From Candidatus Falkowbacteria bacterium (GTDB taxonomy: Bacteria > Patescibacteriota > Patescibacteriia > Patescibacteriales > UBA12465), in assembly GCA_903847415.1 (NCBI GenBank), contig CAINDR010000015.1:33872-97871 (forward strand): DNA of 64,000 nt, read 5' to 3'. Positions 3,188-50,440 of the stretch are shown piece by piece; positions within the stretch are counted from its first letter, which is position 1, and every line of letters begins with the position of its first letter. A program made the position numbers and the translations under genes. The notes below the pieces were generated by a model. That model saw only the letters and a program-made list of their open reading frames with translations, searched no databases and had not been told where the DNA came from.

Positions 3188-4161
3188 GCGAATCAATCAA
3201 AAGAAAATATAACATAGGCATTGGCAGAGAGACTACGAGGGGCGTAAAAGTTACGCCAAAGTATTGGCTTAAGCCACTTAGTGCTGAATATAACGATAAG
3301 ATTGAAACTGTTGCCAGCGAGCGTGCTTGCGGAGTCATTGAGGATTCCGAGGAGATGATCATTAAGAATAAATATTCGGATGGTCAAATCCAAGGTGAAG
3401 CCTTTGACAAGAGTTTTGGCTTATTCATTTTAGGGGCGTTGGGTCAGGTTAGTAGCGTGGCTAAAGTTGGTGACTTAGCGGTTTATGATCACACCTTTTC
3501 AGTTTTACAGTCAGCTAAACATCCAACTTTTACTATTGAGGTTAAAAGGGGTGATGTGGAGCAGAAGTCTTACGGCAATTGCGTGATTGAAAGTTTAAAG
3601 ATTGAAAGTCAGGCACATGATTATGTTAAATTCGAAGCCAAGTTAAAAGGCAAGACCAGTGGAGTGGCTACGAATAGTGCTGGTTATGTGACTGAGAATT
3701 ATTTTTTAGGCAAAGATGTCAGTGTGAAATTGGCTGATAATTTATCAGGACTTGACTCGGCGACAGTGATTGATGCTAGAAAAATCACTATACAGATTGC
3801 CAAGAATTTAGAAGAAGATAAGCGACTAGGTGCCGATGAGCCGAATGATTTTCTTAATAAAGAATTATCTATTGAGGGAACGCTGGAGATATTGTTTAAG
3901 GATAGCACGCTTAAGGACTACGCTTTGAATGGCATTCAGAAAGCCTTGCGGATTGATATCGTTAACACAAACAAAGTCATCGGATCATCTAGTAATCCTC
4001 GATTAAAGATTGATCTGGCTAAGATTAAATTTAAGGATCCAGTCGAGGGTGGTGATAATAACGATATCGTTAAAGTCACAGTTGGCTTTAAGGGATTATA
4101 CTCAGCGACTGATTCCAAGAGTATTGAAGCCGTATTAACTAATTTAGAAACTAATTACTAA
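3184..4161 (+). CDS. Major tail protein (putative)
   Basis: 325 aa, beta-rich. Located between head-tail joining genes and the chaperone/tape-measure pair. Confidence 0.4.
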   Translation: MSESIKRKYNIGIGRETTRGVKVTPKYWLKPLSAEYNDKIETVASERACGVIEDSEEMIIKNKYSDGQIQGEAFDKSFGLFILGALGQVSSVAKVGDLAVYDHTFSVLQSAKHPTFTIEVKRGDVEQKSYGNCVIESLKIESQAHDYVKFEAKLKGKTSGVATNSAGYVTENYFLGKDVSVKLADNLSGLDSATVIDARKITIQIAKNLEEDKRLGADEPNDFLNKELSIEGTLEILFKDSTLKDYALNGIQKALRIDIVNTNKVIGSSSNPRLKIDLAKIKFKDPVEGGDNNDIVKVTVGFKGLYSATDSKSIEAVLTNLETNY

Positions 4162-13931: not shown

Positions 13932-15119
13932 ATGATAGATACAAAGCTAAAAATAAATAATAAAAACTTGTTTCCAGAATTACGATTTCCAGATTTTAAA
14001 GAGCCTTGGCAAAGAAAAAAACTTAATGAAGTTTTCAAAGAAATAACAGAAACTATAGGAGATAGAAATATTGAAACATACAGTGTAACAGCTGGAAAAG
14101 GTTTTGTTAGCCAAAAAGAAAAGTTTGGTAAAAATATATCCGGGCAACAAAATTCTAAATATATTGTTCTTGGGTCTAATGACTTTTCTTATAATAAAGG
14201 TAATTCAAAGACGTATAAGTGTGGTTGCATTTATTTAAACACTGAAGATAGAAAAATAGCTGTGCCAAATGTTTTTATTAGTTTTAGATTAATTGATAAA
14301 AATAATGATGCTTTTTATTTTTCAAAACTTTTTGAATCTCATTATTTAGATATTGGCTTAAGAAAGATTATTTCAAGCACTTCTAGGGCAGATGGGTTGT
14401 TGAATGTAAATAAAAAGAATTTCTTTAATCTTGAAATAATGTTGCCCAGTCAGCCCGAACAAAAAAAGATATCCATTTTTTTATCTACAATTGATAAGTG
14501 GATTGAAAATTTATACAACCAAAAAGTATTTTTGCAAGAATATAAAAAAAGTATTGCCCAGAAGATATTTTCCCAAGAAATTAGATTTAAGGATGATGAT
14601 GGTAACTCTTTTGATGATTGGAAATGGAATAAATTGAGTGATATTTGCACCATTAAAACGGGAAAAAAAGATGTAAATGAAGGTAATCCAAAAGGAGCTT
14701 ACCCTTTTTTTACTTGTGCAAAGAAGCCGACTTATTGTGATAGCTATTCATTTGATTGTGAGGCAATTCTGATTGCCGGCAATGGAGAAGTGGGGCATTG
14801 CCAAAAGTATAGTGGTAAATTTGAAGCATATCAAAGAACTTATGTGTTAAGTAATTTTATGTGTAATTCTGATTATTTATTTGCTTTTTTAAATTCGTTT
14901 TTTCAGATTTATGTAAATAGTAAAAAGCAAACAGGTGCGATGCCTTATATAAAACTTGGGATGCTGGAAAACTACACTATACCTATATTATCTTTATTGG
15001 AGCAACAGAAAATTGCTAACTTTCTAAATTCAATAGATAAATTTATTGAATTAAAAGAAAAGGAGATTGTAAAAGCCGAAGAGTGGAAAGTCGGGTTAAC
15101 ACAAAAATTATTTATATAA
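13932..15119 (+). CDS. hsdS: Type I restriction-modification system specificity subunit
   Basis: 395 aa. Sits between hsdM and hsdR with 3-nt gaps. Two-domain organisation separated by a conserved helical spacer (LPSQPEQKKISIFL, LEQQKIANFL). Confidence 0.7.
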   Translation: MIDTKLKINNKNLFPELRFPDFKEPWQRKKLNEVFKEITETIGDRNIETYSVTAGKGFVSQKEKFGKNISGQQNSKYIVLGSNDFSYNKGNSKTYKCGCIYLNTEDRKIAVPNVFISFRLIDKNNDAFYFSKLFESHYLDIGLRKIISSTSRADGLLNVNKKNFFNLEIMLPSQPEQKKISIFLSTIDKWIENLYNQKVFLQEYKKSIAQKIFSQEIRFKDDDGNSFDDWKWNKLSDICTIKTGKKDVNEGNPKGAYPFFTCAKKPTYCDSYSFDCEAILIAGNGEVGHCQKYSGKFEAYQRTYVLSNFMCNSDYLFAFLNSFFQIYVNSKKQTGAMPYIKLGMLENYTIPILSLLEQQKIANFLNSIDKFIELKEKEIVKAEEWKVGLTQKLFI

Positions 15120-15121
15120 AT

Positions 15122-17920
15122 ATGTCACATCAATCAGAATTACAACTTGAAAAAACCTTGATAAGTCAGCTCGAAAGACTGGGGTTTGAGTCGGTTATCT
15201 TAGAAGACACTAAGTCTTTAGATATAAATTTAAAAACACAGTTGGAAAAGTTTAATAAAACGACTTTTTCAGATTTAGAGTTTTCAAGAATATTAAATCA
15301 TCTTAAAAAAGGGGATAGATTTCATAAAGCAAAAATTCTAAGAGATCGTTTTGTGTTGTCTCGTGACGATGACAGTAAATTTTGGGTGCGTTTCTTTAAT
15401 ATGGAGCAGTGGTGTAAGAATGAATATCAAGTAACCAATCAGATCACAAATGTCGGGCGTTATGAAAATAGATACGATGTCACATTGCTTATAAACGGTT
15501 TACCATTAGTTCATATTGAATTAAAAAGACGTGGAATTGAGATGAAAGAAGCTTTTAATCAGATTCAGCGTTATCACAAGCACTCGTTTACAGGAACGCT
15601 GTTTGAATTCGTTCAGATATTTGTAATTTCTAACGGAGTAAATACTAAATATTTTGCTAATAACCCTAAACAATCATTTGAGCAGACATTTTATTGGACA
15701 GATGAAAAAAATAATAAGATAACTCAACTCGATGAATTTGCTTCAGTCTTTTTGGAAAAATGTTCTGTGTCAAAAACTATTGCAGAATATATAGTGTTGG
15801 CAGAGTCATTGCAAATTCCAATGATACTTCGCCCTTATCAGTATTATGCGGTCAAGGCTATAGAGAATCGTGTAAAAGAATCAGGTAAAAATGGTTATAT
15901 TTGGCATACAACTGGATCTGGAAAAACATTAACATCATACAAGGCCAGTCAAATACTTTCACAAAACCCTGAAATAAAAAAGGTATTATTTGTGGTTGAT
16001 CGTAAGGATTTGGATATTCAGACAACTAAAGAATTTAATTCGTTTTCTGACGGGTCTGTAGATGGCACAAATTATACTAGAAATCTGGTAGCACAATTAA
16101 AAGACCCAAGCAGAAAATTAATTGTGACGACTATCCAGAAATTGGATATTGCGATTGGCAGAGAATCATATCTTAAACAGTTTGAAAGTCTGGCTAACGA
16201 AAAAATAGTTATTATTTTTGATGAGTGTCATCGTAGTCAATTTGGTCAGACTCATGCTCGCATTAAGGGCTTCTTTAAGAAAGCCCAGTTATTTGGTTTT
16301 ACAGGTACGCCTATCTTTGCGGATAATAATGTTGGGGGAGTTACTACTGCCGATGTTTTTGGTGAATGCTTACATAAATATATAATCACTAATGCAATAT
16401 CGGATAATAATGTACTTGGCTTTGCCGTTGAGTATGTTGGCAAATATACTCAGAAAGATCAAAGTACTTTGGATGCAGATATTTTTGCTGAAACATTGGT
16501 TGAGGGTATAGATACTAAGGAAGTTCTAGAAAGTCCGGAAAGATTAAACAAGATCACTGACTATGTTTTAGCTGATTGGAAAAGAAAAACAAAGAACGGT
16601 AAGTTTAACGCTTTGTTTGCAGTTTCCAGTATTGAAGTTTTGAAAAAATATTATACTTTATTTAAGACTAAAAAATCAGACGACCTTAAAATCGCTACTA
16701 TCTTTACTTATCAAGTGAATGAAGATGAAAGCGGAGACATGCTTGATTTTGATGTTTTTGCTGGAGAGGAAGCTACTGGTAATCAGCATTCTAGGAATTT
16801 TTTAGAAGCTTGTATCAAGGATTATAACTTATTATATTCGACCAATTTCTCAACTGATCGCTTTTATGATTATTACAAAGACCTGCAAAAAAGAATTAAG
16901 GATAAAGAGGTTGATTTAGTCTTGGTGGTTAATATGTTTTTGACGGGATTTGATAGTCCAAGACTCAATACACTTTATGTTGATAAAAATTTGCAATATC
17001 ATGGATTAATTCAGGCCTACTCTAGAACTAATAGATTATTGAATTCTGATAAGCCCCACGGGAATGTCGTATCTTTTAGAAATTTAAAAAAGGCTACCGA
17101 CAAAGCTTTAGCACTTTTTGGTGATGAAAATGCTAAAGAAATAGTTTTTAAAAGGCCATACGATGAACAGAAAAAAGAATTTGAAGATAAATTGTCAGAA
17201 TTACGTGAAGCGGTTCCAACTGTTAGTTCTGTTGATTCTTTGCAAAGCGAGGAGGAAAAGGCCGTTTTTGTTAAAACATTTCGTGATTTGCTTCGCATTA
17301 AATCTTCGCTTGAAACATTTTCTGATTTTTCTTTTGGAGATTTAGGAATAAGCGAGCAAGAATTTTATGATTACCAAAGTAAATATTTGGATGTTTACGA
17401 GGATCGAAAAAATGAAGAAAGTACGGCGGAATCAATTCTTGATCAGATTGATTTTGAACTTGAACTTACTGTCCGTGATATTATTAATTTTGATTATATA
17501 ATTCTGTTAATAGCTGGTTTGAAATGCATTACTTCTGATGTGTTGCGAAAAAAGAAAGCAGAAGAAATACTTCGTATTTTTGACAGAGATGTGCAGTTGC
17601 GAAAAAAGAAAGATTTAATTCGCAAATTTATTGAAGAGAACTTGCCAAAAATTAGCAAGATGGATGATGTTGAAAAAGCATTTAATCATTTTTGGACAAG
17701 TGAAAGAGCCGAGGTATTAAAAAAATTAGCTGAAGATGAGAACATTCCTACTGAAAAGATTGAAGGCTTGATTGGTGAATATTTATATACTCAGAAATTA
17801 CCAAGAGAACAAGATATTGCTGATATGCTACCAGTCCAGCCAAAAATCATGGAAAGAAAGGGTATTATAAACAGGATTAAGAATGCAATTGAAAATATCG
17901 TTGATATGTTTGAGTGGTAA
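15122..17920 (+). CDS. hsdR: Type I restriction enzyme endonuclease/helicase subunit
   Basis: Roughly 930 aa. Walker A TTGSGKT and DEAH-like FDECHRSQ helicase motifs. N-terminal nuclease region. ATG at 15122 directly after the hsdS stop. Confidence 0.85.
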   Translation: MSHQSELQLEKTLISQLERLGFESVILEDTKSLDINLKTQLEKFNKTTFSDLEFSRILNHLKKGDRFHKAKILRDRFVLSRDDDSKFWVRFFNMEQWCKNEYQVTNQITNVGRYENRYDVTLLINGLPLVHIELKRRGIEMKEAFNQIQRYHKHSFTGTLFEFVQIFVISNGVNTKYFANNPKQSFEQTFYWTDEKNNKITQLDEFASVFLEKCSVSKTIAEYIVLAESLQIPMILRPYQYYAVKAIENRVKESGKNGYIWHTTGSGKTLTSYKASQILSQNPEIKKVLFVVDRKDLDIQTTKEFNSFSDGSVDGTNYTRNLVAQLKDPSRKLIVTTIQKLDIAIGRESYLKQFESLANEKIVIIFDECHRSQFGQTHARIKGFFKKAQLFGFTGTPIFADNNVGGVTTADVFGECLHKYIITNAISDNNVLGFAVEYVGKYTQKDQSTLDADIFAETLVEGIDTKEVLESPERLNKITDYVLADWKRKTKNGKFNALFAVSSIEVLKKYYTLFKTKKSDDLKIATIFTYQVNEDESGDMLDFDVFAGEEATGNQHSRNFLEACIKDYNLLYSTNFSTDRFYDYYKDLQKRIKDKEVDLVLVVNMFLTGFDSPRLNTLYVDKNLQYHGLIQAYSRTNRLLNSDKPHGNVVSFRNLKKATDKALALFGDENAKEIVFKRPYDEQKKEFEDKLSELREAVPTVSSVDSLQSEEEKAVFVKTFRDLLRIKSSLETFSDFSFGDLGISEQEFYDYQSKYLDVYEDRKNEESTAESILDQIDFELELTVRDIINFDYIILLIAGLKCITSDVLRKKKAEEILRIFDRDVQLRKKKDLIRKFIEENLPKISKMDDVEKAFNHFWTSERAEVLKKLAEDENIPTEKIEGLIGEYLYTQKLPREQDIADMLPVQPKIMERKGIINRIKNAIENIVDMFEW

Positions 17921-30887: not shown

Positions 30888-32504
30888 ATGAATTATTTAA
30901 AGATTGGCAAAGCAACGGATCTAACCGGTAAAGATTATCTTTTTTATCGTTTTTTGGAAATGTTACCAGGCTTATTTTCGCTAGTCACTCTTTTTGTTTT
31001 GTTAGTTCTTTCTTACTTTCAGCCGGTTTGGGTGGCTTATTTCATGATTGCCTTTGATGTTTACTGGTTGCTATTAGTAATATATTTAGCAATTTATTTA
31101 TTAGTTTCTTATTTTAAATTAAAAAAAGGCAAGGAAATTAATTGGCAAGAAAAATGCGAGAATCTTTCTTTGGAGAGTAGAAAGAAAGTATTAGACCAAG
31201 AATTAATTAGCAAGATTGAAAATAATGAAAACAGAGAAACAAGTCTTGCTTCAGCTGGTTTGTGTTGGGAGGATTTAATTCAAGTTGTCATTCTTCCAAA
31301 CGCTTTTGAAAGCGCAGAAATTGTCCGGACATGTTTAAATTCTTTGCTAAACGACGGTTTTCCTACCAAGCAAATGATTGTCGTTGTTGCTCTTGAAGCG
31401 AGATGTGGAGATCTTGCCATTGAAAAAGGAAACTTAATGCAAAAAGAATTTGGTGATCGTTTTCGAAATTTTTTAGTAACTTATCATCCAGACGGGATTG
31501 TTGGGGAATTAAAAGGCAAGGGAGCTAATCAGGCTTGGGCAGCAAAACAGGTAAAGAGCCAAATAATTGATCCAGAAGGTCTTGATTCAGCTAAAATTTT
31601 GGTTAGCGTTTTTGATATTGATACAATTTTATCGCCAGGATATTTTTATTGCTTATCTCATAAGTTTTTAACAGTAAATTCTCCTTATCGTTCTAGTTAC
31701 CAACCAATTCCAGTGTTTCATAATAATATTTGGAATGCGCCATTTTTTTCACGAGTTGCCGCTGCTTCAAATACTTTCTGGCAGATGATGATGCAAGTGA
31801 GACAGGAAAGCTTGGTCACTTATTCTTCTCATTCAATGACCTATCGCGCGCTTTTGGATATTGGTTTTTGGTCTACTAATATGGTTAGTGAAGATTCCAG
31901 AATTTTTTGGAATTGTTTGATGTACTATAATGGTGAATATCGAGTGGAACCTCTCTATCATTTAGTTTCAATGGATATTACTGCTGATAAAACAACTAGA
32001 TTAACTGTTCGTAGTTTATATAAACAACAGCGACGTTGGGCTTGGGGAGTGGAAAGCTTGCCTTATTTAATGTTTAATACAATTAAAAATTGGAAAAATT
32101 TAAAAAAGAAGCCAGTTGTTGGCCATATTTTGGTCCAAATTTATGGTTTTCATTCTTGGGCGACAAACGCTTTAATTATTGCGGTGATTGGTTGGATGCC
32201 AATGATTCTTGGTGGTGACCGCTTTAATTCAACAGTATTATCCGGAAACCTTCCAGCTATCTCTTCTTTTTTAATGAACTTAGCGATGATTGGAATGGTT
32301 TTATCCGCAATTATTTCTTCTTTGCTTTTACCAAAAAGACCAAAACAGTATTCAGCTTGGAAAAATATTGCTATGATTCTGGAGTGGGTTTGTGTGCCGA
32401 TTACGATTATTATTTTTGGAGCTATTCCATGTTTGGATGCGCAAATCAAATTATTAAGAGGAAAGTATATGGGATTTTGGATTACTCCAAAAATTAGAAA
32501 TTAA
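30888..32504 (+). CDS. Family 2 processive glycosyltransferase, integral membrane
   Basis: DID (DxD) and QQRRWAWG (QxxRW) motifs characteristic of processive GT2 enzymes. Multiple TM helices at both ends. Confidence 0.55.
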   Translation: MNYLKIGKATDLTGKDYLFYRFLEMLPGLFSLVTLFVLLVLSYFQPVWVAYFMIAFDVYWLLLVIYLAIYLLVSYFKLKKGKEINWQEKCENLSLESRKKVLDQELISKIENNENRETSLASAGLCWEDLIQVVILPNAFESAEIVRTCLNSLLNDGFPTKQMIVVVALEARCGDLAIEKGNLMQKEFGDRFRNFLVTYHPDGIVGELKGKGANQAWAAKQVKSQIIDPEGLDSAKILVSVFDIDTILSPGYFYCLSHKFLTVNSPYRSSYQPIPVFHNNIWNAPFFSRVAAASNTFWQMMMQVRQESLVTYSSHSMTYRALLDIGFWSTNMVSEDSRIFWNCLMYYNGEYRVEPLYHLVSMDITADKTTRLTVRSLYKQQRRWAWGVESLPYLMFNTIKNWKNLKKKPVVGHILVQIYGFHSWATNALIIAVIGWMPMILGGDRFNSTVLSGNLPAISSFLMNLAMIGMVLSAIISSLLLPKRPKQYSAWKNIAMILEWVCVPITIIIFGAIPCLDAQIKLLRGKYMGFWITPKIRN

Positions 32505-42499: not shown

Positions 42500-43084
42500 T
42501 TGAAAAGTATTATTATAATGACTTCAGATATTGACAATCATTCAACGGTCTTAAGCGATGAGGAGTTAATGCAGCAATCGTTGTCCAACCCTCAAGCTTT
42601 TGCTACGCTAATCGCTCGTTACAAAGGGTTATTTTTTCGTTATCTAAAAAGTTTTTCTGGTTTGCGAGATGATGAGATTGAAGATGTCGTCCAAATATCT
42701 TTTATAAAAATATATCGCAATCTCAAAGCTTTTAGAACTGATTTGAAGTTCTCCTCCTGGGCTTATCGGATTATCCACAATGAAGCGGTGGATGAGATTA
42801 AAAGGCGACGGCGACAAGGAAGTGAAAATGAGCTAGATTTAGATTTGCCAGACAAGATATCTTTGGTTGATCAATTAGATGAGAAGTTGGAGAGAAAAAA
42901 AGTTTTGGCAGTTTTAAAAAAAATGAGTCCTGATTATCGAGAAATATTAACACTTTATTTTTTTGAAGGGCAATCATATCAAGAAATTTCAGATATCCTT
43001 AGGCGGCCATTGGGAACGGTTTGCACTCAGATTAATCGGGCTAAAAAACAGTTTAAAGAATTATACCAAAAATATGTTAGATGA
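42500..43084 (+). CDS. ECF-type RNA polymerase sigma factor (sigma-70 regions 2 and 4)
   Basis: Region 2 FSSWAYRIIHNEAVD and region 4 REILTLYFFEGQSYQEISDILRRPLGTVCTQINRAKK. Confidence 0.75.
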   Translation: MKSIIIMTSDIDNHSTVLSDEELMQQSLSNPQAFATLIARYKGLFFRYLKSFSGLRDDEIEDVVQISFIKIYRNLKAFRTDLKFSSWAYRIIHNEAVDEIKRRRRQGSENELDLDLPDKISLVDQLDEKLERKKVLAVLKKMSPDYREILTLYFFEGQSYQEISDILRRPLGTVCTQINRAKKQFKELYQKYVR

Positions 43085-43841
43085 TTTAGAAAAAAAAATT
43101 ATCAATGAAATCAGTAATGGTAATTTAAAATCAACTAGTCGTTTCTTTTTGACGCTAAAATCTCTTGGTCGTTCTTTTTTGTTGGCTGTATTTTTGTTTC
43201 TTTCCGGATTATTTCTTTCTGTGCTCTATTTAATCATTAGACACGGAGATTGGGATCTTTATCGTTTTTTTGGTTATTCGCCATTATCTTTTTTTGTAGT
43301 TGCTTTTCCTTATTTTTGGTTAGTGGGCGGCTTGTTTTTTCTGATTTGGTCTTTAATTATAACCAGAAAAACTAATCAGGCTTATCGGTATCCTCTGGTT
43401 TATAATGGAATTTTAGGGATGCTTATTATTCTAATAATTTCAATGATTTTTGTATGGTCTGGGGTGGGGATAAAAACTGAATCTTTTTTATCTTCCAATT
43501 ATTTTTATCGTCAGGCTAACTACTTGAGATCATTATGGGACAATCCAGACAGAGGTTTGTTGGCTGGAACGCTTGAGCGCCTAGCAAATGACCAGTTATC
43601 ATTACGCGATTTTTCTGGAAAATTATGGACCCTCAATCTAAGAGAAGAAAAGATTATAAATCAATCATTATTGAATCCTGGTAATCGGGTGAAAATAATC
43701 GGATTTATAGAAGATGATTATTTCGTTGTTAAAGAGGTTCGTCATTGGGAATGCGGCTGTCCTCATTGTGCAATGATTAATAGCGAATGCTCTAGTTGTT
43801 CTTCCGGTTTTTGTTCAGATTCTTCTTGTCGGGTGAAATAA
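43074..43841 (+). CDS. Anti-sigma-like membrane protein with Cys-rich C-terminus
   Basis: Overlaps the sigma stop (ATGTTAGATGA). About four TM segments. C-terminus WECGCPHCAMINSECSSCSSGFCSDSSC. Confidence 0.35.
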   Translation: MLDDLEKKIINEISNGNLKSTSRFFLTLKSLGRSFLLAVFLFLSGLFLSVLYLIIRHGDWDLYRFFGYSPLSFFVVAFPYFWLVGGLFFLIWSLIITRKTNQAYRYPLVYNGILGMLIILIISMIFVWSGVGIKTESFLSSNYFYRQANYLRSLWDNPDRGLLAGTLERLANDQLSLRDFSGKLWTLNLREEKIINQSLLNPGNRVKIIGFIEDDYFVVKEVRHWECGCPHCAMINSECSSCSSGFCSDSSCRVK

Positions 43842-43903
43842 AATAGCGCTTGGTAAAGTAGTATTTATAGAAAGCGCTTTTATTAATAATAATTTTAATC
43901 ATT

Positions 43904-44173
43904 ATGACAAAAAAAACTATTTCAGCTTTTGCTGTTGCAACATTGTTTTTGGGTGGTTTAGCCTTTTTTATTGGATCAAATGCTCTAAAAACTGAAGCAA
44001 AAGAAGCTGTGTTGACTGATGTAGGCTCTAAACCAGCCGCCTGTAAAGCTTTAATAAAAGATGGTTCTTGTGGCTGCACTGCAAATGGTGGAACTTGTAA
44101 TTGTGGAAAAACTGGATCAAATTGTGCTGCTAACGTTAATCAAAAAGCTACTTGTGGCTGCGGGGCAAAGTAA
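43904..44173 (+). CDS. Secreted/membrane-anchored Cys-rich small protein
   Basis: 89 aa. N-terminal hydrophobic helix. Ten Cys in the last 45 aa with CGC, CNC, CGC spacing. Confidence 0.4.
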   Translation: MTKKTISAFAVATLFLGGLAFFIGSNALKTEAKEAVLTDVGSKPAACKALIKDGSCGCTANGGTCNCGKTGSNCAANVNQKATCGCGAK

Positions 44174-44200
44174 TTAAGTTTTCAACAATTTTTGAAGCAA

Positions 44201-44225
44201 AGCCAGTTTAATCACTGGCTTTTTT
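44201..44225 (+). terminator. Rho-independent terminator
   Basis: AGCCAGT ttaatc ACTGGCT followed by TTTTT. Confidence 0.6.
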
Positions 44226-44375
44226 GTTTGCCAAGGCAGTTTTATAAGAAAATCCTCCAATAAACTACATAGATTGTATTTTGTTTTTTTCTGATTTTTT
44301 AAATAATATCTTTTTACAATAGACCTATTTTTTAAAGTCCTATCCTTATTTCTTTATCTTTTCTGAAAAATAAGC

Positions 44376-44381
44376 TATAAT
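44376..44381 (+). promoter_or_regulatory. Candidate -10 element TATAAT upstream of the putative RT-associated ncRNA
   Basis: Perfect TATAAT 8 nt upstream of inverted-repeat arm a1. No convincing -35. Confidence 0.3.
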
Positions 44382-44389
44382 AATGAAAC

Positions 44390-44572
44390 AATTATCCTCA
44401 AAACCCTTTTTTAGGGATATTAACAGCTATCGTCAATCAAGTCTTTTTTTACCGTTAATATCGGTGACTTGTTCTTTGATAATAGTTTAACGAAGCGCGG
44501 CCTCACGGTTTTGCTCCTCGATGGATTAAAATAATATTTCAGAGATTTCTCTTAAATATCTTGAGGATAATT
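44390..44572 (+). ncRNA. Putative retron-like (msr/msd-type) structured ncRNA bounded by a perfect 12-bp inverted repeat
   Basis: AATTATCCTCAA (44390-44401) pairs with TTGAGGATAATT (44561-44572), which ends 6 nt before the RT ATG. The interior has a compound hairpin CAAGTC-T7-ACCG-ttaatat-CGGT-GACTTG (44438-44471) and further stems. Structure was predicted by eye only. Confidence 0.35.
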
Positions 44573-44578
44573 AAAAAT

Positions 44579-45781
44579 ATGTTTGAAAAGATTATTAGCG
44601 ACGCCAATTTACAGGCGGCGTATTTGAAGATTGTTGAGCAATTTGCTGCCGAGAAAAAAGGTTCTCGTTATCATGGCTTGGACAATCTTTTTTTAAAAGA
44701 TTTTGATTTAGATTCTTGCGAATTGATTAAATTAATTCGGCAAGAATTGCAAACTAAAACAGAAATTAGTCCGGCTTTAGCAATAAAAATTCCGAAAAAA
44801 AACAATCCCGAAAAATTTCGGGAGATTTTTGTTTATAATTTAAAAGAGAGAATTAAAGCTCAGGCAATTTTTCAAATCCTTTTGCCCGTATTTGAAAAAC
44901 ATTTTTCTGATCGTCTTTTCTCTTATCGTCCCGGTAAGCCACCGTATCTAGCTGCAAAATATTTTTGTCGCCGCTATCGAGATTCTTTTACTCAAGACTA
45001 TCTTTTTGTGGTTGATTTGGAAAATTATTCTGATTTAATTGATCATGACTTATTGTTAAGTTATTTATCTGAAATTTTTGTTGAAGAAGAAGTTATTTCT
45101 ACTCTCAAGTTATTTATTGGGAATAAGGTGTATCGTTCTGGAACTATTGAAAAATTGAAACAGGGCTTGGTTCAGGGGGTTCCCTTGATTGCAATGTTCT
45201 CAAATCTTTACTTAAGTGATCTTGATTTTAAGTATCAAAAAAAAGTGCCATTTTATCTTAGGGTTGGTGATGATATTGCTTTTTTTGATCGCTATCCTCA
45301 AAAATTAGAAATTTTAAAAAATAATTTTGTTAGCGATCTTCAGAAAAAAAAGTTAAAAGTTAGTGAAAGCAAACAATATTTTGGTCCAGCAAATGGAGAA
45401 TTTTCTTTCCTTGGTTATTCTTTTTTTCAGGGCCTTATTAGTTTGGAAAAGAAATATTTAAAAAGAATTGTTTTGGAGTGGAAAAATATTTTGAGCAAAC
45501 AAAAATTAAGCGATAACAAAAAAGACTTGTTCATAAAAAAGATAATGTTTAATCCCCGTAGTAATTATAATTTTCAATTTGAAAAAATTATTAAGGATAA
45601 ATCGCAAATTAACAACTCTGAACAGATTAAAAAAGTTTCCGAAGAATTTTTTAAAATTATGACTAAATTTTTTTATACTCGCTATTCTCCTCGCAATCGT
45701 CGCTTGCTAGAAGATCGTCTTCGATCTTTTGGCTTGAAGTCACTTTATTTTTTTTATAAAAAATTTCATTATGAGCGTTAA
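44579..45781 (+). CDS. Reverse transcriptase (retron / group-II-like family, free-standing)
   Basis: RT motifs 1-2 IPKKNNPEKFREIF...FSYRPGKPPYLA. Motif A FVVDLENYSDLIDHDLL. Motif B' GLVQGVPLIAMFSNLYL. Motif C RVGDDIAFF (YxDD variant). Motifs 6-7 FSFLGYSF. ATG at 44579 (track starts at TTG 44561). No intron RNA domains and no maturase/endonuclease extension. Confidence 0.8.
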   Translation: MFEKIISDANLQAAYLKIVEQFAAEKKGSRYHGLDNLFLKDFDLDSCELIKLIRQELQTKTEISPALAIKIPKKNNPEKFREIFVYNLKERIKAQAIFQILLPVFEKHFSDRLFSYRPGKPPYLAAKYFCRRYRDSFTQDYLFVVDLENYSDLIDHDLLLSYLSEIFVEEEVISTLKLFIGNKVYRSGTIEKLKQGLVQGVPLIAMFSNLYLSDLDFKYQKKVPFYLRVGDDIAFFDRYPQKLEILKNNFVSDLQKKKLKVSESKQYFGPANGEFSFLGYSFFQGLISLEKKYLKRIVLEWKNILSKQKLSDNKKDLFIKKIMFNPRSNYNFQFEKIIKDKSQINNSEQIKKVSEEFFKIMTKFFYTRYSPRNRRLLEDRLRSFGLKSLYFFYKKFHYER

Positions 45782-47456
45782 CAAAAAACAAATTAATTTA
45801 TTGAAATCAATTCGCTCAATTCGGAAAAATTATCAAGAGGTGATTTTGAGTAAAAGGCATTGGCGATTTTTGTTTGGTTTTTTACTTGATCATCGTTTGA
45901 GTTTTGTGATTTTAGTTTTTTTGTTCTTTGCTCAGGGTTTAATTGAAGCAATTTTTATTATTTTTAGTCGAAACCAAATATCTGGCGGTCTTTTGCCTTT
46001 TTTTTGGGAATTTTTAGGACTTTTGCTATGTTTATTTTTTCTTAATTCTTATTTTTCAATTCGTCAAGAAAAAACTTTGGGAGTTCTTTTTGCTAACAGT
46101 TTAAGAAAAAGAATTTTTGAAGATTATCTTCGTCGTCCGTCTGCTAGTTTGAATCAAAAAAACCAAGCTGATTTAATCGCTAAAATGTCTTATCAATTAC
46201 CGCTAGCTTCAATGGGGGTGGTTAATTCTTTTTTTGGTGCTTTGCGTTGGCTGATTAATATTTTAGTAGTACTGATACTACTAATTAAAAGTGATTTATC
46301 TTGGTCCTTAGCTTTGTTGTTTTCTTTAATCTTTTCAGCGGTAATTGGTCTGATTAGTTATTTTATTTCCAAAAGTTATGTTTCTCAGGAAGTAACTTTT
46401 TATTCTCAAATTATTAGAGAGGTTGGAATTTCTACTAATGATCGATCTTTTCTTAAAATTTTTAATCAAGAAAAAAAAGTTCTTCAGCGATTTGATCAAT
46501 TAGTAGATTTTGATTCTTTTTTTCGAATTCGTCGGGATCTTTGGTTGAAATTAAGTGTAAAAATTCTTTTTGCCCTTTTATTACTATTATCATTATGGTT
46601 TCATTTTTCTTCATCAAATCTATTATTGGAATTTAATTTAATCTCCTCAGAAAAGAAAATAATTCTTCTATTTCTGTTTATTTATTTTTCTCGAATTTTG
46701 TATGAAAGTTTACGGGTTGGTCTTTATCTTTGGCCAGCACAGCTTGGTTTGTATTTAACGATTCCAAAGTCTGGTCGTAATTTTTGTCGAGATCGGGTTC
46801 TTAAATTTGAGACCAGTTTAAATTTTTATGGTCGAAAACTAAAATTATTTTTGGGAGCGAGTTATCAGAAAAATTTTTCTTGGTTTTTTGAGAAGGGAAA
46901 GCGTTATCTTTTTTATTCTCCTTCTTCGACTGGAAAATCATCACTGGCTCGGGCCTTTTCTGGTCTAGAAGTATTTGAGCCAAAATCTTTAAGAATTAAA
47001 ATTGACGGCAAGCGTCTTGATTTTCAGAGTTGGCAACGTTTTAGCGAGGGAATTTGTTTTATTGATCCAAATTTTTTTTCTGAGAAAAGTATTTTTGAAT
47101 TTATTATTGGTCAAAATAGGAAGAATCAAGATCTTCCTTCAGTAGAGAGTGTTTTTCAAGTTCTTCGTCTTTATCCGGAGTTATTAACAAGAATTTCTCG
47201 GGAAGGAAACTTTAATGTTAGCGCTGCTTCTGTTCTAGGTAGCCCGATTAGTGCTTTTGCTCTTTATTTGGCTCGTTGCTTGGTGAGCAAGCCAGCTTTA
47301 GTGGTTATTGATAATTTTTGGCTAGACTTAGCTTACGAAGAAATCAATAAAATGCTATTATTATTAGACCAGGAATTACCAAATTCAATAATTGTTGTTT
47401 TTTCTAGAAAAGACAATAGTTATTTTAATTATCATCAAAAATATGAACTTAATTAA
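45771..47456 (+). CDS. ABC-exporter-like membrane protein with degenerate nucleotide-binding domain
   Basis: Overlaps the RT stop by 11 nt. About six TM helices, then an NBD-like region. It has a P-loop-like SPSSTGKSS, a degenerate signature, and Walker B VVIDNF without the catalytic Glu. Confidence 0.5.
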   Translation: MSVNKKQINLLKSIRSIRKNYQEVILSKRHWRFLFGFLLDHRLSFVILVFLFFAQGLIEAIFIIFSRNQISGGLLPFFWEFLGLLLCLFFLNSYFSIRQEKTLGVLFANSLRKRIFEDYLRRPSASLNQKNQADLIAKMSYQLPLASMGVVNSFFGALRWLINILVVLILLIKSDLSWSLALLFSLIFSAVIGLISYFISKSYVSQEVTFYSQIIREVGISTNDRSFLKIFNQEKKVLQRFDQLVDFDSFFRIRRDLWLKLSVKILFALLLLLSLWFHFSSSNLLLEFNLISSEKKIILLFLFIYFSRILYESLRVGLYLWPAQLGLYLTIPKSGRNFCRDRVLKFETSLNFYGRKLKLFLGASYQKNFSWFFEKGKRYLFYSPSSTGKSSLARAFSGLEVFEPKSLRIKIDGKRLDFQSWQRFSEGICFIDPNFFSEKSIFEFIIGQNRKNQDLPSVESVFQVLRLYPELLTRISREGNFNVSAASVLGSPISAFALYLARCLVSKPALVVIDNFWLDLAYEEINKMLLLLDQELPNSIIVVFSRKDNSYFNYHQKYELN

Positions 47457-48639
47457 ACAAATTAGGCAAGGCAACTGTCGCGATAGTTTGCCAATGTTTT
47501 TTTTCTCCACAGTTATTTTGTTGTTAGTGATGTTCTTGTTGTTTATTTTTTTCAAATACTATTTTAATTCAGATAATAGTTCTGATTTTAGCTCCACAAA
47601 AACTCTTGTTGTTGATGAGCCGTTTTCTGGGCAGCTTTATTTTAATGATGAATTAGGAGAGAAGGTTTTTTCTCCAGTAATCATCGAGGCAATTTCTAAA
47701 GCAAAAAAAAGTGCAGAATTAGCAGTTTATTCGATGGATGATCAAGGAATTCGTGATGCCCTTTATCGAGCTTCTAAGCGAGGCGTAAAAGTAACAATGG
47801 TGCTTAGTGATAAGCGAAAAGATGGGCACGATCAAGTTCTTCAAAATCTGCCGAAAGAGATTAAACGGATTGATGCGCCGTCAAGTGAAGGTTATATGCA
47901 CCACAAGTTTTTAATTCTTGATCGAGGATCAAATCAGGAAAAGTTATTTTTTGGTTCTTATAACTTTACCGCTCTTCAGGAAAAATATGATCCTTCTTTT
48001 TTGCTAGAAACTACTCGACCAGAGATTGTGAAGATTTTTGGTCAAGAATTTGATCGCTTAAAAAATGAAGTTTATGGTCGGAAGAAACTTAACTCTCGTC
48101 AAATTTATTTGATGACTAGAATTAAATATCCAGAAGGATTTTTGGAGATTTGGTTTTCTCCACAGTTATCTCGTGGTGGTTTGAGGGAAAGAATGCTTGG
48201 TTTGATTAATAATTCGAAGGACAATCTCAAGGTAATGATCTGGAATTTTACCAGCAAAAGCATGGCACTTGATATTGCTGATGCGGCAGTCAGAAAAAGC
48301 GTGAGAATTATTGCTGATGATTTAAATTATTCACTTCCAGAGTCCGCTTTCAACACCTTGTTGTCTGAAAAGGGAAGTCGTTCTTTGGAAAAATTAGAAA
48401 TAATTACTGATGCCAAACGAAATGAAGAAGCGATTCGCTTGTCTGGTGATAAAAGTTTGAATTCTTTCTTACATCATCACCTTCTTTTGGTTGATGATCG
48501 GGTAGCAGTTTTTGGCAGTGGCAACTGGAGTAATAATGGTTTTTATAGCAACGATGAGTCAACGATGATTTCCGATATTAATATTTTAGTTCAGCCATTC
48601 ATTGAGTCTTGGCAAAAAAATTATGAGCACAATAAGTAA
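47443..48639 (+). CDS. Phospholipase D-family (HKD) protein, N-terminal TM anchor
   Basis: Overlaps the upstream stop by 14 nt. HKD motif 1 is HHKFLILD...GSYNFT. Motif 2 LHHHLLLVDD...GSGNWS has K replaced by H. Confidence 0.6.
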   Translation: MNLIKQIRQGNCRDSLPMFFFSTVILLLVMFLLFIFFKYYFNSDNSSDFSSTKTLVVDEPFSGQLYFNDELGEKVFSPVIIEAISKAKKSAELAVYSMDDQGIRDALYRASKRGVKVTMVLSDKRKDGHDQVLQNLPKEIKRIDAPSSEGYMHHKFLILDRGSNQEKLFFGSYNFTALQEKYDPSFLLETTRPEIVKIFGQEFDRLKNEVYGRKKLNSRQIYLMTRIKYPEGFLEIWFSPQLSRGGLRERMLGLINNSKDNLKVMIWNFTSKSMALDIADAAVRKSVRIIADDLNYSLPESAFNTLLSEKGSRSLEKLEIITDAKRNEEAIRLSGDKSLNSFLHHHLLLVDDRVAVFGSGNWSNNGFYSNDESTMISDINILVQPFIESWQKNYEHNK

Positions 48640-49143: not shown

Positions 49144-49737
49144 ATGTTGGAACCATTGGAAGATTATTCTTCTTTTTCAGACAATGAATTAGTGCTTTTA
49201 GCCTTAAAAAATCAGGCCATTTTTGCTATTTTAATGAATCGTTATAGTGAAAAATTAACTAGATATGCTCAACGAATCTCTAATTTAAGAACCGAAGAGG
49301 TTGAGGATGTTATTCAAGAGGTGTTTATTAAAGTCTATAAAAACCTCAATGATTTTGAAAGCGATCTCCGATTTTCTTCTTGGATTTATCGAATTACTCA
49401 TAATCAGGTTATTAGCCACCATCGAGCTAAAAATGCTAGACCTCAAACAGTGGAGATCGACGATGCTTTGGCTAATCGTTTGCGGGCGGAAGTTGACTTG
49501 ACGAAGGAAATCATTAGTCAAGACTTAAAGGTGGAAATCGCGACTTTATTAGCAAAATTAAAACCTATTCATCGAGAAATTTTAGTTTTGCGTTTTTTTG
49601 AGGAAAAGAGTTATGAAGAGATTTCAGATATTTTAAAAAAACCAAGTGGTAGTGTGGCCACTTTGATTTATTCAGCCAAAAAAGAATTAAAAGAAAAGTA
49701 TGAAAAATCTGAGCGACAAAGTCCTGGAAAAAATTAA
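49144..49737 (+). CDS. ECF-type RNA polymerase sigma factor (paralogue of 42500-43084)
   Basis: Region 2 FSSWIYRITHNQVIS and region 4 REILVLRFFEEKSYEEISDILKKPSGSVATLIYSAKK. Clearly alignable with the upstream sigma. Confidence 0.75.
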   Translation: MLEPLEDYSSFSDNELVLLALKNQAIFAILMNRYSEKLTRYAQRISNLRTEEVEDVIQEVFIKVYKNLNDFESDLRFSSWIYRITHNQVISHHRAKNARPQTVEIDDALANRLRAEVDLTKEIISQDLKVEIATLLAKLKPIHREILVLRFFEEKSYEEISDILKKPSGSVATLIYSAKKELKEKYEKSERQSPGKN

Positions 49738-50440
49738 ACAAGAATCAATTAAACCCCATCCTCGTTGGTATTTTTTAGCACGAGATTGTTTCTTGTGGTT
49801 TTTAGTTTCCTTGGTTACTATTTTAGGTGGAATTGCCTTTTCTTTGGTGATGCTTTTTCTTTATTTTCAGCGTTTTGGTTTTAGGAATCCTCATCCCGCT
49901 AGTAATTTTAATTGGCTACTTGTTTCCATTCCTTATGCTTGGTTATTCGTTTTTGTGGTGTTAGTGGTTGTGATTTACTATAATCTTAAACATCTCAAAA
50001 AAAGCTATAAATATCCACCTTACTTATTAATTATTGCATCATTAGTGGCTAGTATTGTTTTGGGTGTCATTATTTCAAATTTTGGAGTTCATCGGCGAAT
50101 GAATGATGAGTTTTCTCGTCGTGTGCCTTTCTATGGGCGAGTTTTTGATGCCAGGGTTCCAGCCTGGGGAAGACCGATGGAAGGAGTTCTAGCAGGGAAA
50201 ATTGGCAGAGTAGAGGAGGATTTTTTTCTTCTTGAAGATTTTCATGCCAAAGAATGGAAAATTGTTCTCCTCAAAGAAACAGAGGCAGTTGAATCAATTA
50301 AAATTGTTTCTGGTCAGTTGATTTTAATCAATGGTCGCCAGGAAGGTCCAGGGGTATTTGTGGCTGAAGAAATTTTTCCTTGGGATGGTTGTCCAAAAAA
50401 GTGTAAATTAATCAATTCGAATTTTCCAAGAATTCGGTAG
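49700..50440 (+). CDS. Anti-sigma-like membrane protein (paralogue of 43074-43841)
   Basis: Overlaps the sigma 3' end. Same architecture as 43074-43841. C-terminus has a single CPKKC. Confidence 0.3.
   Translation: MKNLSDKVLEKIKQESIKPHPRWYFLARDCFLWFLVSLVTILGGIAFSLVMLFLYFQRFGFRNPHPASNFNWLLVSIPYAWLFVFVVLVVVIYYNLKHLKKSYKYPPYLLIIASLVASIVLGVIISNFGVHRRMNDEFSRRVPFYGRVFDARVPAWGRPMEGVLAGKIGRVEEDFFLLEDFHAKEWKIVLLKETEAVESIKIVSGQLILINGRQEGPGVFVAEEIFPWDGCPKKCKLINSNFPRIR

Follow-up and report, generated by a model that had tools for sequence, protein, structure and literature searches.

In a 64-kb stretch of Candidatus Falkowbacteria DNA (hereafter the window, meaning the whole 64,000-nt stretch analysed), an exact inverted repeat upstream of a reverse transcriptase (RT) gene forms the closing helix of a roughly 185-nt pseudoknotted RNA. 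The same RNA structure is kept in about 50 homologous loci of Patescibacteria, where it is linked to an unusual RT, a degenerate ABC-exporter-like membrane protein and a PLD/Nuc-like enzyme predicted to face outward. The observation made in the earlier note, a perfect 12-bp inverted repeat bracketing a structured noncoding region that ends at the RT ribosome-binding site, is confirmed. Its interpretation is only partly supported: the repeat does close a structured, RT-linked noncoding RNA on the RT strand, but the proposed identity as a retron msr-msd is not supported, and no described RNA family was matched in Rfam.

A conserved pseudoknotted RNA upstream of the RT gene

The two arms are exact 12-nt reverse complements separated by 159 nt, and no other exact copy of the 12-mer exists in the window, which speaks against a dispersed repeat. 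The 198-nt region folds at -51.9 kcal/mol, compared with -32.8 +/- 4.0 for dinucleotide shuffles (z = -4.7). Although the earlier note considered a chance origin of the repeat improbable, this argument holds only for a region chosen beforehand: perfect 12-nt inverted repeats 20-300 nt apart number 4 seeds (3 pairs) across the window, whereas first-order Markov simulations give 5.4 seeds, so that the repeat alone is not significant. What lifts it above chance is conservation with compensatory change in related loci. An alignment-free search finds a 10-23-bp long-range inverted repeat upstream of the RT in nearly all of 58 loci, with quite different sequences, and RNAalifold applied to a MAFFT alignment recovers P1, the pseudoknot and P5 with compensatory changes in 19 of 21 pairs. 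In a 50-sequence alignment 90.1% of cells pair, against 38-41% when partners are slid, 41 of 46 pairs have changes on both sides, and 0 of 500 shuffles reach the observed score. The pseudoknot was left out of the covariance model, yet it is 90.6% paired, with 6 of 7 pairs compensatory; about 15 different sequence versions are seen, and it is kept with new sequences in Saccharibacteria-like and Peribacteria-like loci. Together with the metagenomic copies described below, these data refute a chance inverted repeat in A+T-rich intergenic DNA or one copy of a dispersed repeat.

The minus strand folds almost as well in isolation (z = -4.6), but all model hits lie on the RT strand, and the frequent U-G pairs, many with U in the 5' arm of P1, would be C-A mismatches on the other strand; G-U pair orientation and gene linkage assign the RNA to the + strand. 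The features of the locus are collected in Table 1, where L followed by a number designates an individual homologous locus. The nested stem-loop pointed out in the earlier note is part of the predicted fold, as the top of a longer hairpin whose loop forms the covarying pseudoknot.

Table 1. Features of the RNA and the associated genes (positions within the window)
Position	Strand	Feature	Description and support
44376..44381	+	Promoter-like -10 box	TATAAT, 8 nt upstream of the 5' arm; weak -35 (TTTATC), for which reason a consensus scan did not flag it; the same GCTATAAT or GTTATAAT at the same distance in L001 and L002; TATAAT or TATACT 10-25 nt upstream of the 5' arm in most loci; transcription start inferred
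44390..44401	+	P1 5' arm	AATTATCCTCAA; 8 of the 10 P1 pairs in the alignment show compensatory changes
44404..44416	+	SL1	Small hairpin CCCU-UUUUU-AGGG after the conserved linker AA(AA)C; CG to UA changes at the middle pair; A44402 94% conserved
44417..44424	+	Pseudoknot 5' strand	AUAUUAAC; pairs with 44454-44461 (9-nt perfect complement); followed by A44425, 100% conserved
44426..44487	+	P3	Long three-segment hairpin; its helices are 84-96% paired, 12 of their 13 pairs with compensatory changes
44438..44471	+	Nested stem-loop within P3	CAAGTC...ACCG-TTAATAT-CGGT-GACTTG
44451..44465	+	Apical hairpin of P3	ACCG-UUAAUAU-CGGU
44454..44461	+	Pseudoknot 3' strand	GUUAAUAU, in the apical loop of P3
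44491..44513	+	SL4	G+C-richer hairpin, variable in length and sequence, with large insertions and replacements between loci (a perfect 13-bp hairpin in L018, two hairpins in L009)
44516..44533	+	Mini-hairpin and tail	Most conserved unpaired part: CC-UCGAU-GG (consensus loop UCNUU), then AUUAAAAUA (consensus AUUUAAUNA); 44518, 44519, 44522, 44525 and 44528 at least 91% conserved across all clades; the 2-bp helix covaries (CC/GG, CU/AG, CA/UG, GA/UC, AC/GU); candidate RT-contact or template region, function inferred
44534..44559	+	P5	Hairpin AUAUUUCAGAG-AUUU-CUCUUAAAUAU; all 11 pairs with compensatory changes
44561..44572	+	P1 3' arm	TTGAGGATAATT
44564..44568	+	Shine-Dalgarno-like GAGGA	Within the P1 3' arm, 10 nt before the RT ATG
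44579..45781	+	Reverse transcriptase	400 aa; start matches the MF.KI.S N-terminus of all homologues; predicted group-II-intron-like fold; motif C R-V-G-D-D in place of YxDD; conserved C-terminal tail YSPRNRRLL...SLY..Y..FHYER; Pfam RVT_1
45771..47456	+	ABC-exporter-like membrane protein	Transmembrane plus nucleotide-binding domain; overlaps the RT stop by 11 nt; weak Pfam ABC_tran and ABC_membrane hits; degenerate ATPase site: only GK of Walker A conserved, Walker B D-N without catalytic E, no signature motif
47392..48639	+	Two-domain PLD/Nuc-like protein	Likely start ATG 47443; N-terminal membrane anchor; PLDc_2 2e-32, NucT and DrmC-like hits

Several loci favour a free-standing RNA rather than only a leader. 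Tandem duplicate RNAs occur in L012, L017, L029, L037 and L057, and the upstream copy in L012 is followed by a terminator and then a fresh promoter-like region. In L004 the RNA has its own terminator and lies 2 kb from the RT, from which it is separated by two pilin genes, and terminators also lie between the RNA and the RT in L036, L038, L044 and L045. An RNA-only pattern scan of metagenomes gave 7 true hits, and all 7 lie directly upstream of an RT homologue.

Affinities of the reverse transcriptase and its RNA

The RT is closest in sequence and predicted fold to group II intron RTs. It matches the GsI-IIC RT at 3.6e-30, with TM of 0.75-0.81 for the AF2 model (pLDDT 93.4), and scores 118.6 bits against TIGR04416, below the equivalog cut-off of 300. 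The catalytic D146, D231 and D232 are invariant, and Y150, at position +4 of motif A, may be read as the residue that excludes ribonucleotides. The conserved C-terminal tail includes an invariant Y390 and near-invariant S388 and Y369, which is no more than a lead towards the protein priming from a Tyr or Ser that characterises DRT9 and DRT10.

The geometry that led the earlier note to propose a retron is indeed present: a promoter-like element, an inverted repeat around a structured RNA and an RT directly downstream on the same strand, with accessory genes in the same operon; the long hairpin P3 could even be read as an msd stem. However, the conserved guanosine expected just 3' of the 5' arm, set beforehand as a test of the retron reading, is absent: the two positions after the arm are A in 46 of 50 and 44 of 50 sequences, with G in 0 and 1, and the last arm positions are A/A. 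The retron RT signatures NAxxH of region X and VTG of region Y are each found in 0 of 81 family members, and motif C is R[VIL]GDD in 80 of 81, rather than YADD. Retron models and structures match only weakly (the only retron hit in PADLOC is RT_IX, partial, at 1.5e-6; Ec86 gives 1e-5; TM is about 0.5), and no retron family of Rfam matches. The pseudoknot involves the very hairpin that would be the msd, and a pseudoknot of this type is not known as a feature of msr-msd; nor are an ABC-like protein and a PLD known among retron accessory genes. Some database entries call homologues "retron-type reverse transcriptase", but this automatic label is also given to group II RT fragments. A true retron, priming from a 2'-OH to make msDNA, is therefore considered very unlikely.

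Despite the affinity of the RT, no group II intron ribozyme was detected: no Rfam intron family matched at E up to 10 in 43500-46500, nor at gathering score in 16 related loci, and the overlap of the ABC-like gene with the RT stop leaves no room for domains V and VI. A degenerate 5' intron RNA kept without function next to a domesticated intron RT is likewise very unlikely and close to refuted, as the RNA is only 165-290 nt long and strong compensatory evolution across RTs down to 34% identity shows ongoing selection on its fold. The domesticated group-II-like RT G2L4 is not known to have a dedicated ncRNA. In Ll.LtrB, domain IVa, the high-affinity RNA site of the intron RT, also lies next to the start codon and includes the ribosome-binding site, but here the RNA is a closed, pseudoknotted unit that can be duplicated. 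With Rfam 15, nothing overlaps 44390-44572 even at E up to 10, and only tRNA and 23S rRNA matched in the 16 related loci. A diversity-generating retroelement is not supported either, since the window holds no template/variable repeat pair: no second copy of any part of 44300-44580 longer than chance 11-21-mers exists in the window.

Among defence RTs, the nearest PADLOC models are the class 2 UG/Abi groups UG26 (2e-31; 107 bits over profile positions 14-288 of 398) and UG17 (4e-25; 87 bits over 16-310 of 429). These matches cover the RT core alone and are similar in size to the group II intron match. Class 2 members use upstream ncRNA templates (PMC12632851, PMC9226505, PMC13174585), and UG17 was formerly classed as group-II-like G2L3 (PMC8632793). 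In common with DRT10/UG17, DRT9/UG28 and DRT2/UG2, the locus has a stand-alone RT of about 400 aa without an extra enzymatic domain and, directly upstream on the same strand, a structured ncRNA (about 140-190 nt), described for DRT10 as a large central stem decorated with smaller stem-loops (PMC12632851). A conserved unpaired stretch follows the stable SL4, and DRT10 and DRT9 have their templates right after a stable hairpin; however, direct repeats of the DRT10 A-B-A' type in this stretch are not enriched over shuffles (mean longest repeat 3.65 against 3.06 nt), no clear A-B-A' or U-tract template signature was found, and no template was pinned down. Membrane-protein partners occur in both cases, SLATT in DRT10 and an ABC-like protein with an anchored PLD here, neither of which gave a SLATT hit in Pfam or PADLOC. 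The RVGDD motif C, the occurrence in Patescibacteria and the covarying pseudoknot also set the locus apart; the word pseudoknot does not occur in the DRT9 paper, nor is such an element mentioned in the parts of the DRT10 paper that were consulted. The core-closing helix, the pseudoknot and the stable helix directly 5' of a conserved single-stranded stretch also bear a purely topological resemblance to the template/pseudoknot domain of telomerase RNA, with which DRT10 has been argued to share such features (PMC12632851). Evidence of repeat synthesis is absent, no clear alignment/template duplication was detected, and the RT is not TERT-like beyond the common RT fold.

Possible role of the RNA

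The reading favoured here, with moderate confidence, is that the RNA is transcribed from its own -10 element on the RT strand and is the dedicated partner of the group-II-intron-like RT encoded downstream, acting as the scaffold that the RT binds. Most likely it would also carry the template for cDNA synthesis, as is the case for every bacterial RT-adjacent conserved RNA studied so far (retron msr-msd, DGR TR RNA and the DRT2, DRT3, DRT9 and DRT10 ncRNAs), the best candidate for the active-site or template region being the conserved unpaired stretch 3' of SL4. In this locus and its close relatives P1 also buries the RT ribosome-binding site, so the folded RNA should hold RT translation low, and in other clades an intrinsic terminator after the RNA would do the same job. 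In this view the RNA-RT pair works with the two membrane proteins of the operon. The analysis itself establishes the RNA structure, its strand, its strict linkage to the three genes and the RT fold class, whereas RT binding, templating and cDNA synthesis, translational control and any coupling to the membrane proteins are inferred from sequence alone. It should be noted that the RT is about as close to group II intron RTs, which bind their own leader (domain IVa) purely for regulation and splicing, as to templated DRTs.

A purely cis-regulatory leader that is never copied into DNA, either an autoregulatory RT-binding site like domain IVa, which LtrA binds to repress its own translation, or a riboswitch-like sensor, remains possible but is considered less likely. 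Such a leader would control the RT-ABC-PLD operon by hiding the ribosome-binding site in P1 or by termination. It fits the position of GAGGA in the closing helix, the extension of P1 in many close relatives to 20-23 bp ending at the ATG, the attenuator-like terminators that in other clades lie between the RNA and the ATG with no room for a promoter, and the affinity of the RT; tandem aptamers are also found in riboswitches. On the other hand, the 3' arm ends 0-11 nt before the ATG in the close clade but 14-71 nt before it in other clades, so hiding the ribosome-binding site is not the conserved feature. The terminators do not overlap P1, leaving no obvious antiterminator switch, the arrangements in L004 and L012 point to an independent RNA, and the large RNA with its hypervariable hairpin is unlike a compact ligand pocket.

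It is intriguing, though speculative and rather unlikely on present evidence, to hypothesize an undescribed four-part retroelement-derived system of Patescibacteria, in which a pseudoknotted RNA with a telomerase-RNA-like core layout programs a group-II-like RT with an RdRp-style GDD motif to make a specific DNA product. This product would be handed to, or would gate, a non-hydrolysing ABC-exporter-like protein and an extracytoplasmic Nuc-like PLD, tying reverse transcription to the cell envelope or to DNA traffic rather than to classical intracellular phage defence.

Bacterial RTs paired with a dedicated RNA have each revealed an unexpected way of making DNA: msDNA in retrons, gene synthesis in DRT2, homopolymers in DRT9 and telomere-like repeats in DRT10. 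The pair described here differs in its new RNA fold with a strongly supported pseudoknot and in a partner set that is not listed in PADLOC. Literature searches on UG26 and UG17, on group-II-intron-like RTs with ABC transporters and PLD, on RT-associated noncoding RNAs in defence, and on RTs with ncRNA, phospholipase D or defence systems in Patescibacteria returned no description of this cassette or RNA; among the papers examined, those on UG/Abi and prokaryotic RTs do not mention ABC or phospholipase, and the myRT and SPIRE retron papers mention neither these nor Patescibacteria or CPR. The system is restricted to Patescibacteria, ultra-small episymbionts in which RT biology other than DGRs is, as far as is known, little explored. 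As the RNA and RT are small and well defined, the hypothesis is directly testable by heterologous expression, and the pair could become a compact programmable DNA-synthesis tool.

Partner genes and genomic context

The RNA, RT, ABC-like and PLD genes occur together while the flanking genes differ. The ABC-like gene follows the RT on the same strand in 57 of 58 genome loci, and the PLD gene lies on the RT strand downstream of the ABC-like gene in 55 of 58; a 56th match, in L058, lies upstream on the opposite strand. The K/R bias indicates an N-in, C-out topology of the PLD protein in 49 of 54 homologues, so that the catalytic part is predicted to lie outside the cytoplasm, which is hard to connect with a cytoplasmic cDNA.

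None of six long contexts examined, nor the window itself, holds recognisable defence genes, so a DRT-like immune role is not supported by the neighbourhood. A phage-borne element was likewise rejected, with only 1 relative among 2.9 million viral contigs. A link to type IV pili or competence was suggested by L004 and L061, but pilin-like genes lie within the flanks of only 6 of 62 loci, and the association is not a general one.

Inverted repeat and predicted fold

The two arms of the repeat read AATTATCCTCAA and TTGAGGATAATT and were recovered by a repeat search as a 12-nt, 100% complementary pair with 159 nt between the arms, neither of which extends further as a perfect helix. The 12-mer has no other exact copy in the window, and its three one-mismatch copies are within what shuffled sequences give. 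The observation in the earlier note holds: the arms are exact reverse complements, GAGGA lies in the 3' arm 10 nt before the ATG of the reverse transcriptase (RT), and the nested stem-loop singled out there is present in the minimum-free-energy fold. The ATG opens a 400-aa ORF whose N-terminus, MF.KI.S, matches all homologues. The 198-nt region folds far better than dinucleotide shuffles, at -51.9 against -32.8 +/- 4.0 kcal/mol (z = -4.7).

The argument from chance made in the earlier note requires correction, as it holds only for a region picked in advance. Across the whole window, perfect 12-nt inverted repeats 20-300 nt apart occur as 4 seeds (3 pairs), whereas a first-order Markov simulation gives 5.4 seeds, and the repeat by itself is not beyond chance. 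Two other perfect 12-13-nt inverted repeats with 150-260-nt spacing exist in the window, their number being what chance predicts. Two further hairpin-forming palindromes lie inside the RT coding region: ATTCTTGC...GCAAGAAT was picked up as spurious miRNA-like Rfam hits, and TCCCGAAAAATTTCGGGA was flagged as terminator-like on both strands. The predicted transcription start falls within a nucleotide or two of the first base of the closing helix P1, although this is an inference.

Coordinates of the RNA elements and associated features in the window
Feature	Coordinates	Remarks
-10 box TATAAT	44376-44381	Conserved in position in related loci L001 and L002; similar boxes in most loci
P1 5' arm	44390-44401
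Linker AAAAC	follows the arm
SL1	44404-44416
Pseudoknot 5' strand	44417-44424
Invariant A	44425
P3	44426-44487	Three-segment hairpin
Nested stem-loop of the earlier note	44438-44471
Pseudoknot 3' strand	44454-44461	In the apical loop of P3
SL4	44491-44513	Variable in length and sequence across loci
Mini-hairpin CC-UCGAU-GG plus A/U tail	44516-44533	Holds most of the nucleotides conserved in all clades
P5	44534-44559
P1 3' arm	44561-44572
GAGGA	44564-44568
RT start codon ATG	44579
Hairpin-forming palindromes inside the RT coding region	44699-44761 and 44806-44823
RT motif C	45260-45280	RT residues 228-232
ABC-exporter-like protein	45771-47456
PLD protein	47392-48639
Other perfect inverted repeats	14862-15144 and 32100-32274
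ECF-type sigma factor plus membrane anti-sigma-like gene pairs	42500-44173 and 49144-50440	On both sides of the cassette; the first range includes the small Cys-rich protein
Small Cys-rich protein	43904-44173	Secreted-looking; CxC repeats
Strong terminator after the Cys-rich protein	44199-44222

Comparative evidence for a structured RNA

The RT has more than 120 clusters of close homologues, all from Patescibacteria-type metagenome bins, and a scan of one genome per species gave 58 loci (the related loci are designated L001 onward). Many of the genome records carrying the cassette, including those of L001, L004 and L009, are titled "uncultured Gammaproteobacteria bacterium" (binchicken co-assemblies), which looks like a record-title error rather than a true host range. 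In an alignment-free search of the 300 nt upstream of each RT, almost every locus was found to have a long-range inverted repeat of 10-23 bp, often of unrelated sequence, for example TTTCTCCC/GGGAGATTT in L011, GACTGCTCTTAA/TTAAGAGCAGTT in L029, and arms of 20-23 bp in L040, L050, L052 and L053. On a MAFFT alignment of 28 upstream regions, RNAalifold recovers P1, P5 and a long-range helix GAUAUUA:UAAUAUC, with compensatory changes in 19 of 21 pairs.

A covariance model built from a nested structure without that long-range helix finds the RNA upstream of 43 of the 58 RT loci, with 50 genuine hits counting the window and five tandem duplicates, and all genuine hits are on the RT strand. On the resulting alignment 90.1% of cells form standard pairs, against 38-41% when partners are slid by 1-3 columns; 41 of 46 pairs show changes on both sides, and no shuffle reaches the observed covariation score. 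A chance repeat is contradicted by the tests made here. Frequent U-G pairs would be C-A mismatches on the opposite strand, so the RNA is read from the + strand.

The helix left out of the model, which forms the pseudoknot, is 90.6% paired, with compensatory changes in 6 of 7 pairs. Its sequence takes about 15 forms, among them ATATTA/TAATAT, ATGCCG/CGGCAT, ATATCA/TGATAT, GCATTA/TAATGC, GTATTA/TAATAC, GTGTTA/TAACAC, ATGTTA/TAACAT and GTATCG/CGATAC, whereas in loci that the model missed it reads GTATCA/TGATAC, GACATTA/TAATGTC, GTTATCA/TGATAAC, TTGTTTG/CAAACAA, GTTGCTC/GAGCAAC and GTTTCCTT/AAGGAAAC.

Linkage of the RNA to a three-gene cassette

A tblastn search of the window's proteins against the loci shows that only three genes travel together: the RT, the ABC-like protein (57 of 58) and the PLD (55 of 58 on the RT strand downstream, a 56th match, in L058, lying upstream on the opposite strand). 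The flanking genes differ except in the closest relatives. A pattern taken from the RNA alone (GGATATTA, a gap, then CGTTAATATCG) gave 79 matches when scanned against metagenome contigs; seven pass the covariance model, and all seven lie 6-7 nt upstream of an RT homologue, with the ABC-like and PLD genes following where the contig allows. The RNA is therefore not a dispersed repeat.

The RNA also behaves as a unit of its own. Tandem duplicates lie upstream of a single RT in L012, L017, L029, L037 and L057. In L012 (copies at 3525-3698 and 3828-3994) the upstream copy starts about 20 nt after a tRNA-like sequence and is followed by a truncated RT start (ATGTTTCGCTAG) and a terminator, which suggests duplication or integration next to a tRNA gene. 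In L004 (794-3992) the RNA has its own terminator and is surrounded by three paralogous type-IV-pilin-like genes (N-terminus KAFTLIELLVVIAIIGILA), two of which separate it from the RT by 2 kb. In L036, L038, L044 and L045 an intrinsic terminator lies between the RNA and the ATG. The 3' arm ends 0-11 nt from the ATG in the window's clade but 14-71 nt away elsewhere, so that burying the ribosome-binding site is a clade feature and not the conserved function. These arrangements bear on the main alternative, a purely cis-regulatory leader acting either in RT autoregulation, as at group II domain IVa, or as a riboswitch-like sensor. Such a leader would fit the ribosome-binding-site overlap and the terminators, but it does not fit the separated and duplicated copies, and it is considered unlikely, though the strongest of the rivals.

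Proteins encoded by the cassette

The RT carries RVT_1. In PADLOC its best named DRT models are UG26 (2e-31) and UG17/DRT10 (4e-25), both covering the RT core only, and the single retron model hit is 1.5e-6. Against solved structures the profile matches GsI-IIC group II intron RT best (3.6e-30), followed by other group II RTs and Cas6-RT-Cas1, with DRT2 and DRT9 near 1e-10 and Ec86 at 1e-5. TIGR04416 scores 118.6 bits, below its cut-off of 300. An AlphaFold2 model (pLDDT 93.4) superposes best on GsI-IIC RT over nearly its full length (TM 0.75-0.81), with DGR bRT, DRT9 and G2L4 next and retron RTs lower. The catalytic aspartates are invariant, and the C-terminal tail is conserved, with an invariant Y390. 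Motif C is R[VIL]GDD in 80 of 81 members in place of the usual YxDD, and one homologue (P0081) even carries a precomputed Pfam RdRP_1 hit. Y150, read here as the residue that excludes ribonucleotides, is kept. The retron motifs NAxxH and VTG are absent in all 81. The interpretation offered in the earlier note, that the region is a retron msr-msd, is thus supported only in part: a structured RNA does lie directly upstream of an RT, but a true retron is contradicted by the tests made here, as is an inert intron relic.

The ABC-like protein has weak ABC_membrane and ABC_tran matches. Its nucleotide-binding domain is degenerate in all 41 homologues aligned, keeping only GK of Walker A, with a Walker B of D-N lacking the catalytic glutamate and no conserved LSGGQ signature motif, and it is unlikely to be a conventional ATP-driven pump. 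The PLD protein has two PLDc_2 domains that resemble NucT and DrmC, and its second HKD motif reads HxH (LHHHLLLVDD). The K/R bias of its N-terminal anchor predicts an N-in, C-out orientation in 49 of 54 homologues, so that the Nuc-like domains would face outward.

Proposed role of the RNA

The best-supported reading, held with moderate confidence, is that this RNA is the dedicated partner of the RT. The strongly constrained fold, the strand, the strict linkage to the cassette and the character of the RNA as a unit are established by the present analysis, whereas binding by the RT and copying of part of the RNA are inferred from precedent. Every bacterial RT-adjacent conserved RNA studied acts as a template. 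The class 2 UG groups nearest in PADLOC use upstream ncRNAs (PMC12632851, PMC9226505, PMC13174585), and UG17 was once classed as group-II-like (PMC8632793), which fits the intermediate position of the RT. The layout resembles the DRT10 RNA as described, with a central stem decorated with stem-loops and a template loop just 3' of a stable hairpin, and the conserved stretch after SL4 is therefore a candidate for the active-site region, although a direct test for DRT10-type A-B-A' repeats was not significant. In this clade P1 should also restrain RT translation.

No Rfam 15 family matches the RNA, PADLOC has no model for the ABC-like partner and only generic PLD hits, and no description of this cassette was found in the literature searched or in the papers checked. 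Bacterial RTs with a dedicated structured RNA are already known; within the limits of those libraries, what is undescribed is this RNA family and this gene cassette. A cytoplasmic RT-RNA pair combined with an exporter-like protein and a predicted outward-facing Nuc-like enzyme appears unusual among known RT systems and leaves room for a function at the envelope or in DNA traffic.

Genomic context

The six long contexts examined, and the window itself, hold transporters, sigma/anti-sigma pairs, pilus genes, giant surface proteins and housekeeping genes, but no recognisable defence genes. In L061 the cassette follows a PilM/PilB/PilC operon, yet pilin genes are near only 6 of 62 loci. Only one viral contig carries a relative. 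In L029 (8468-9206) and L031 (8488-9206) the 23S rRNA gene starts a few hundred nt downstream of the PLD gene, and tRNA genes lie about 0.7-1.7 kb upstream of the RT in L001, L040 and L050. In the window the cassette is flanked on both sides by pairs of an ECF-type sigma factor and a membrane anti-sigma-like gene, and the gene of a small Cys-rich protein lies just upstream.
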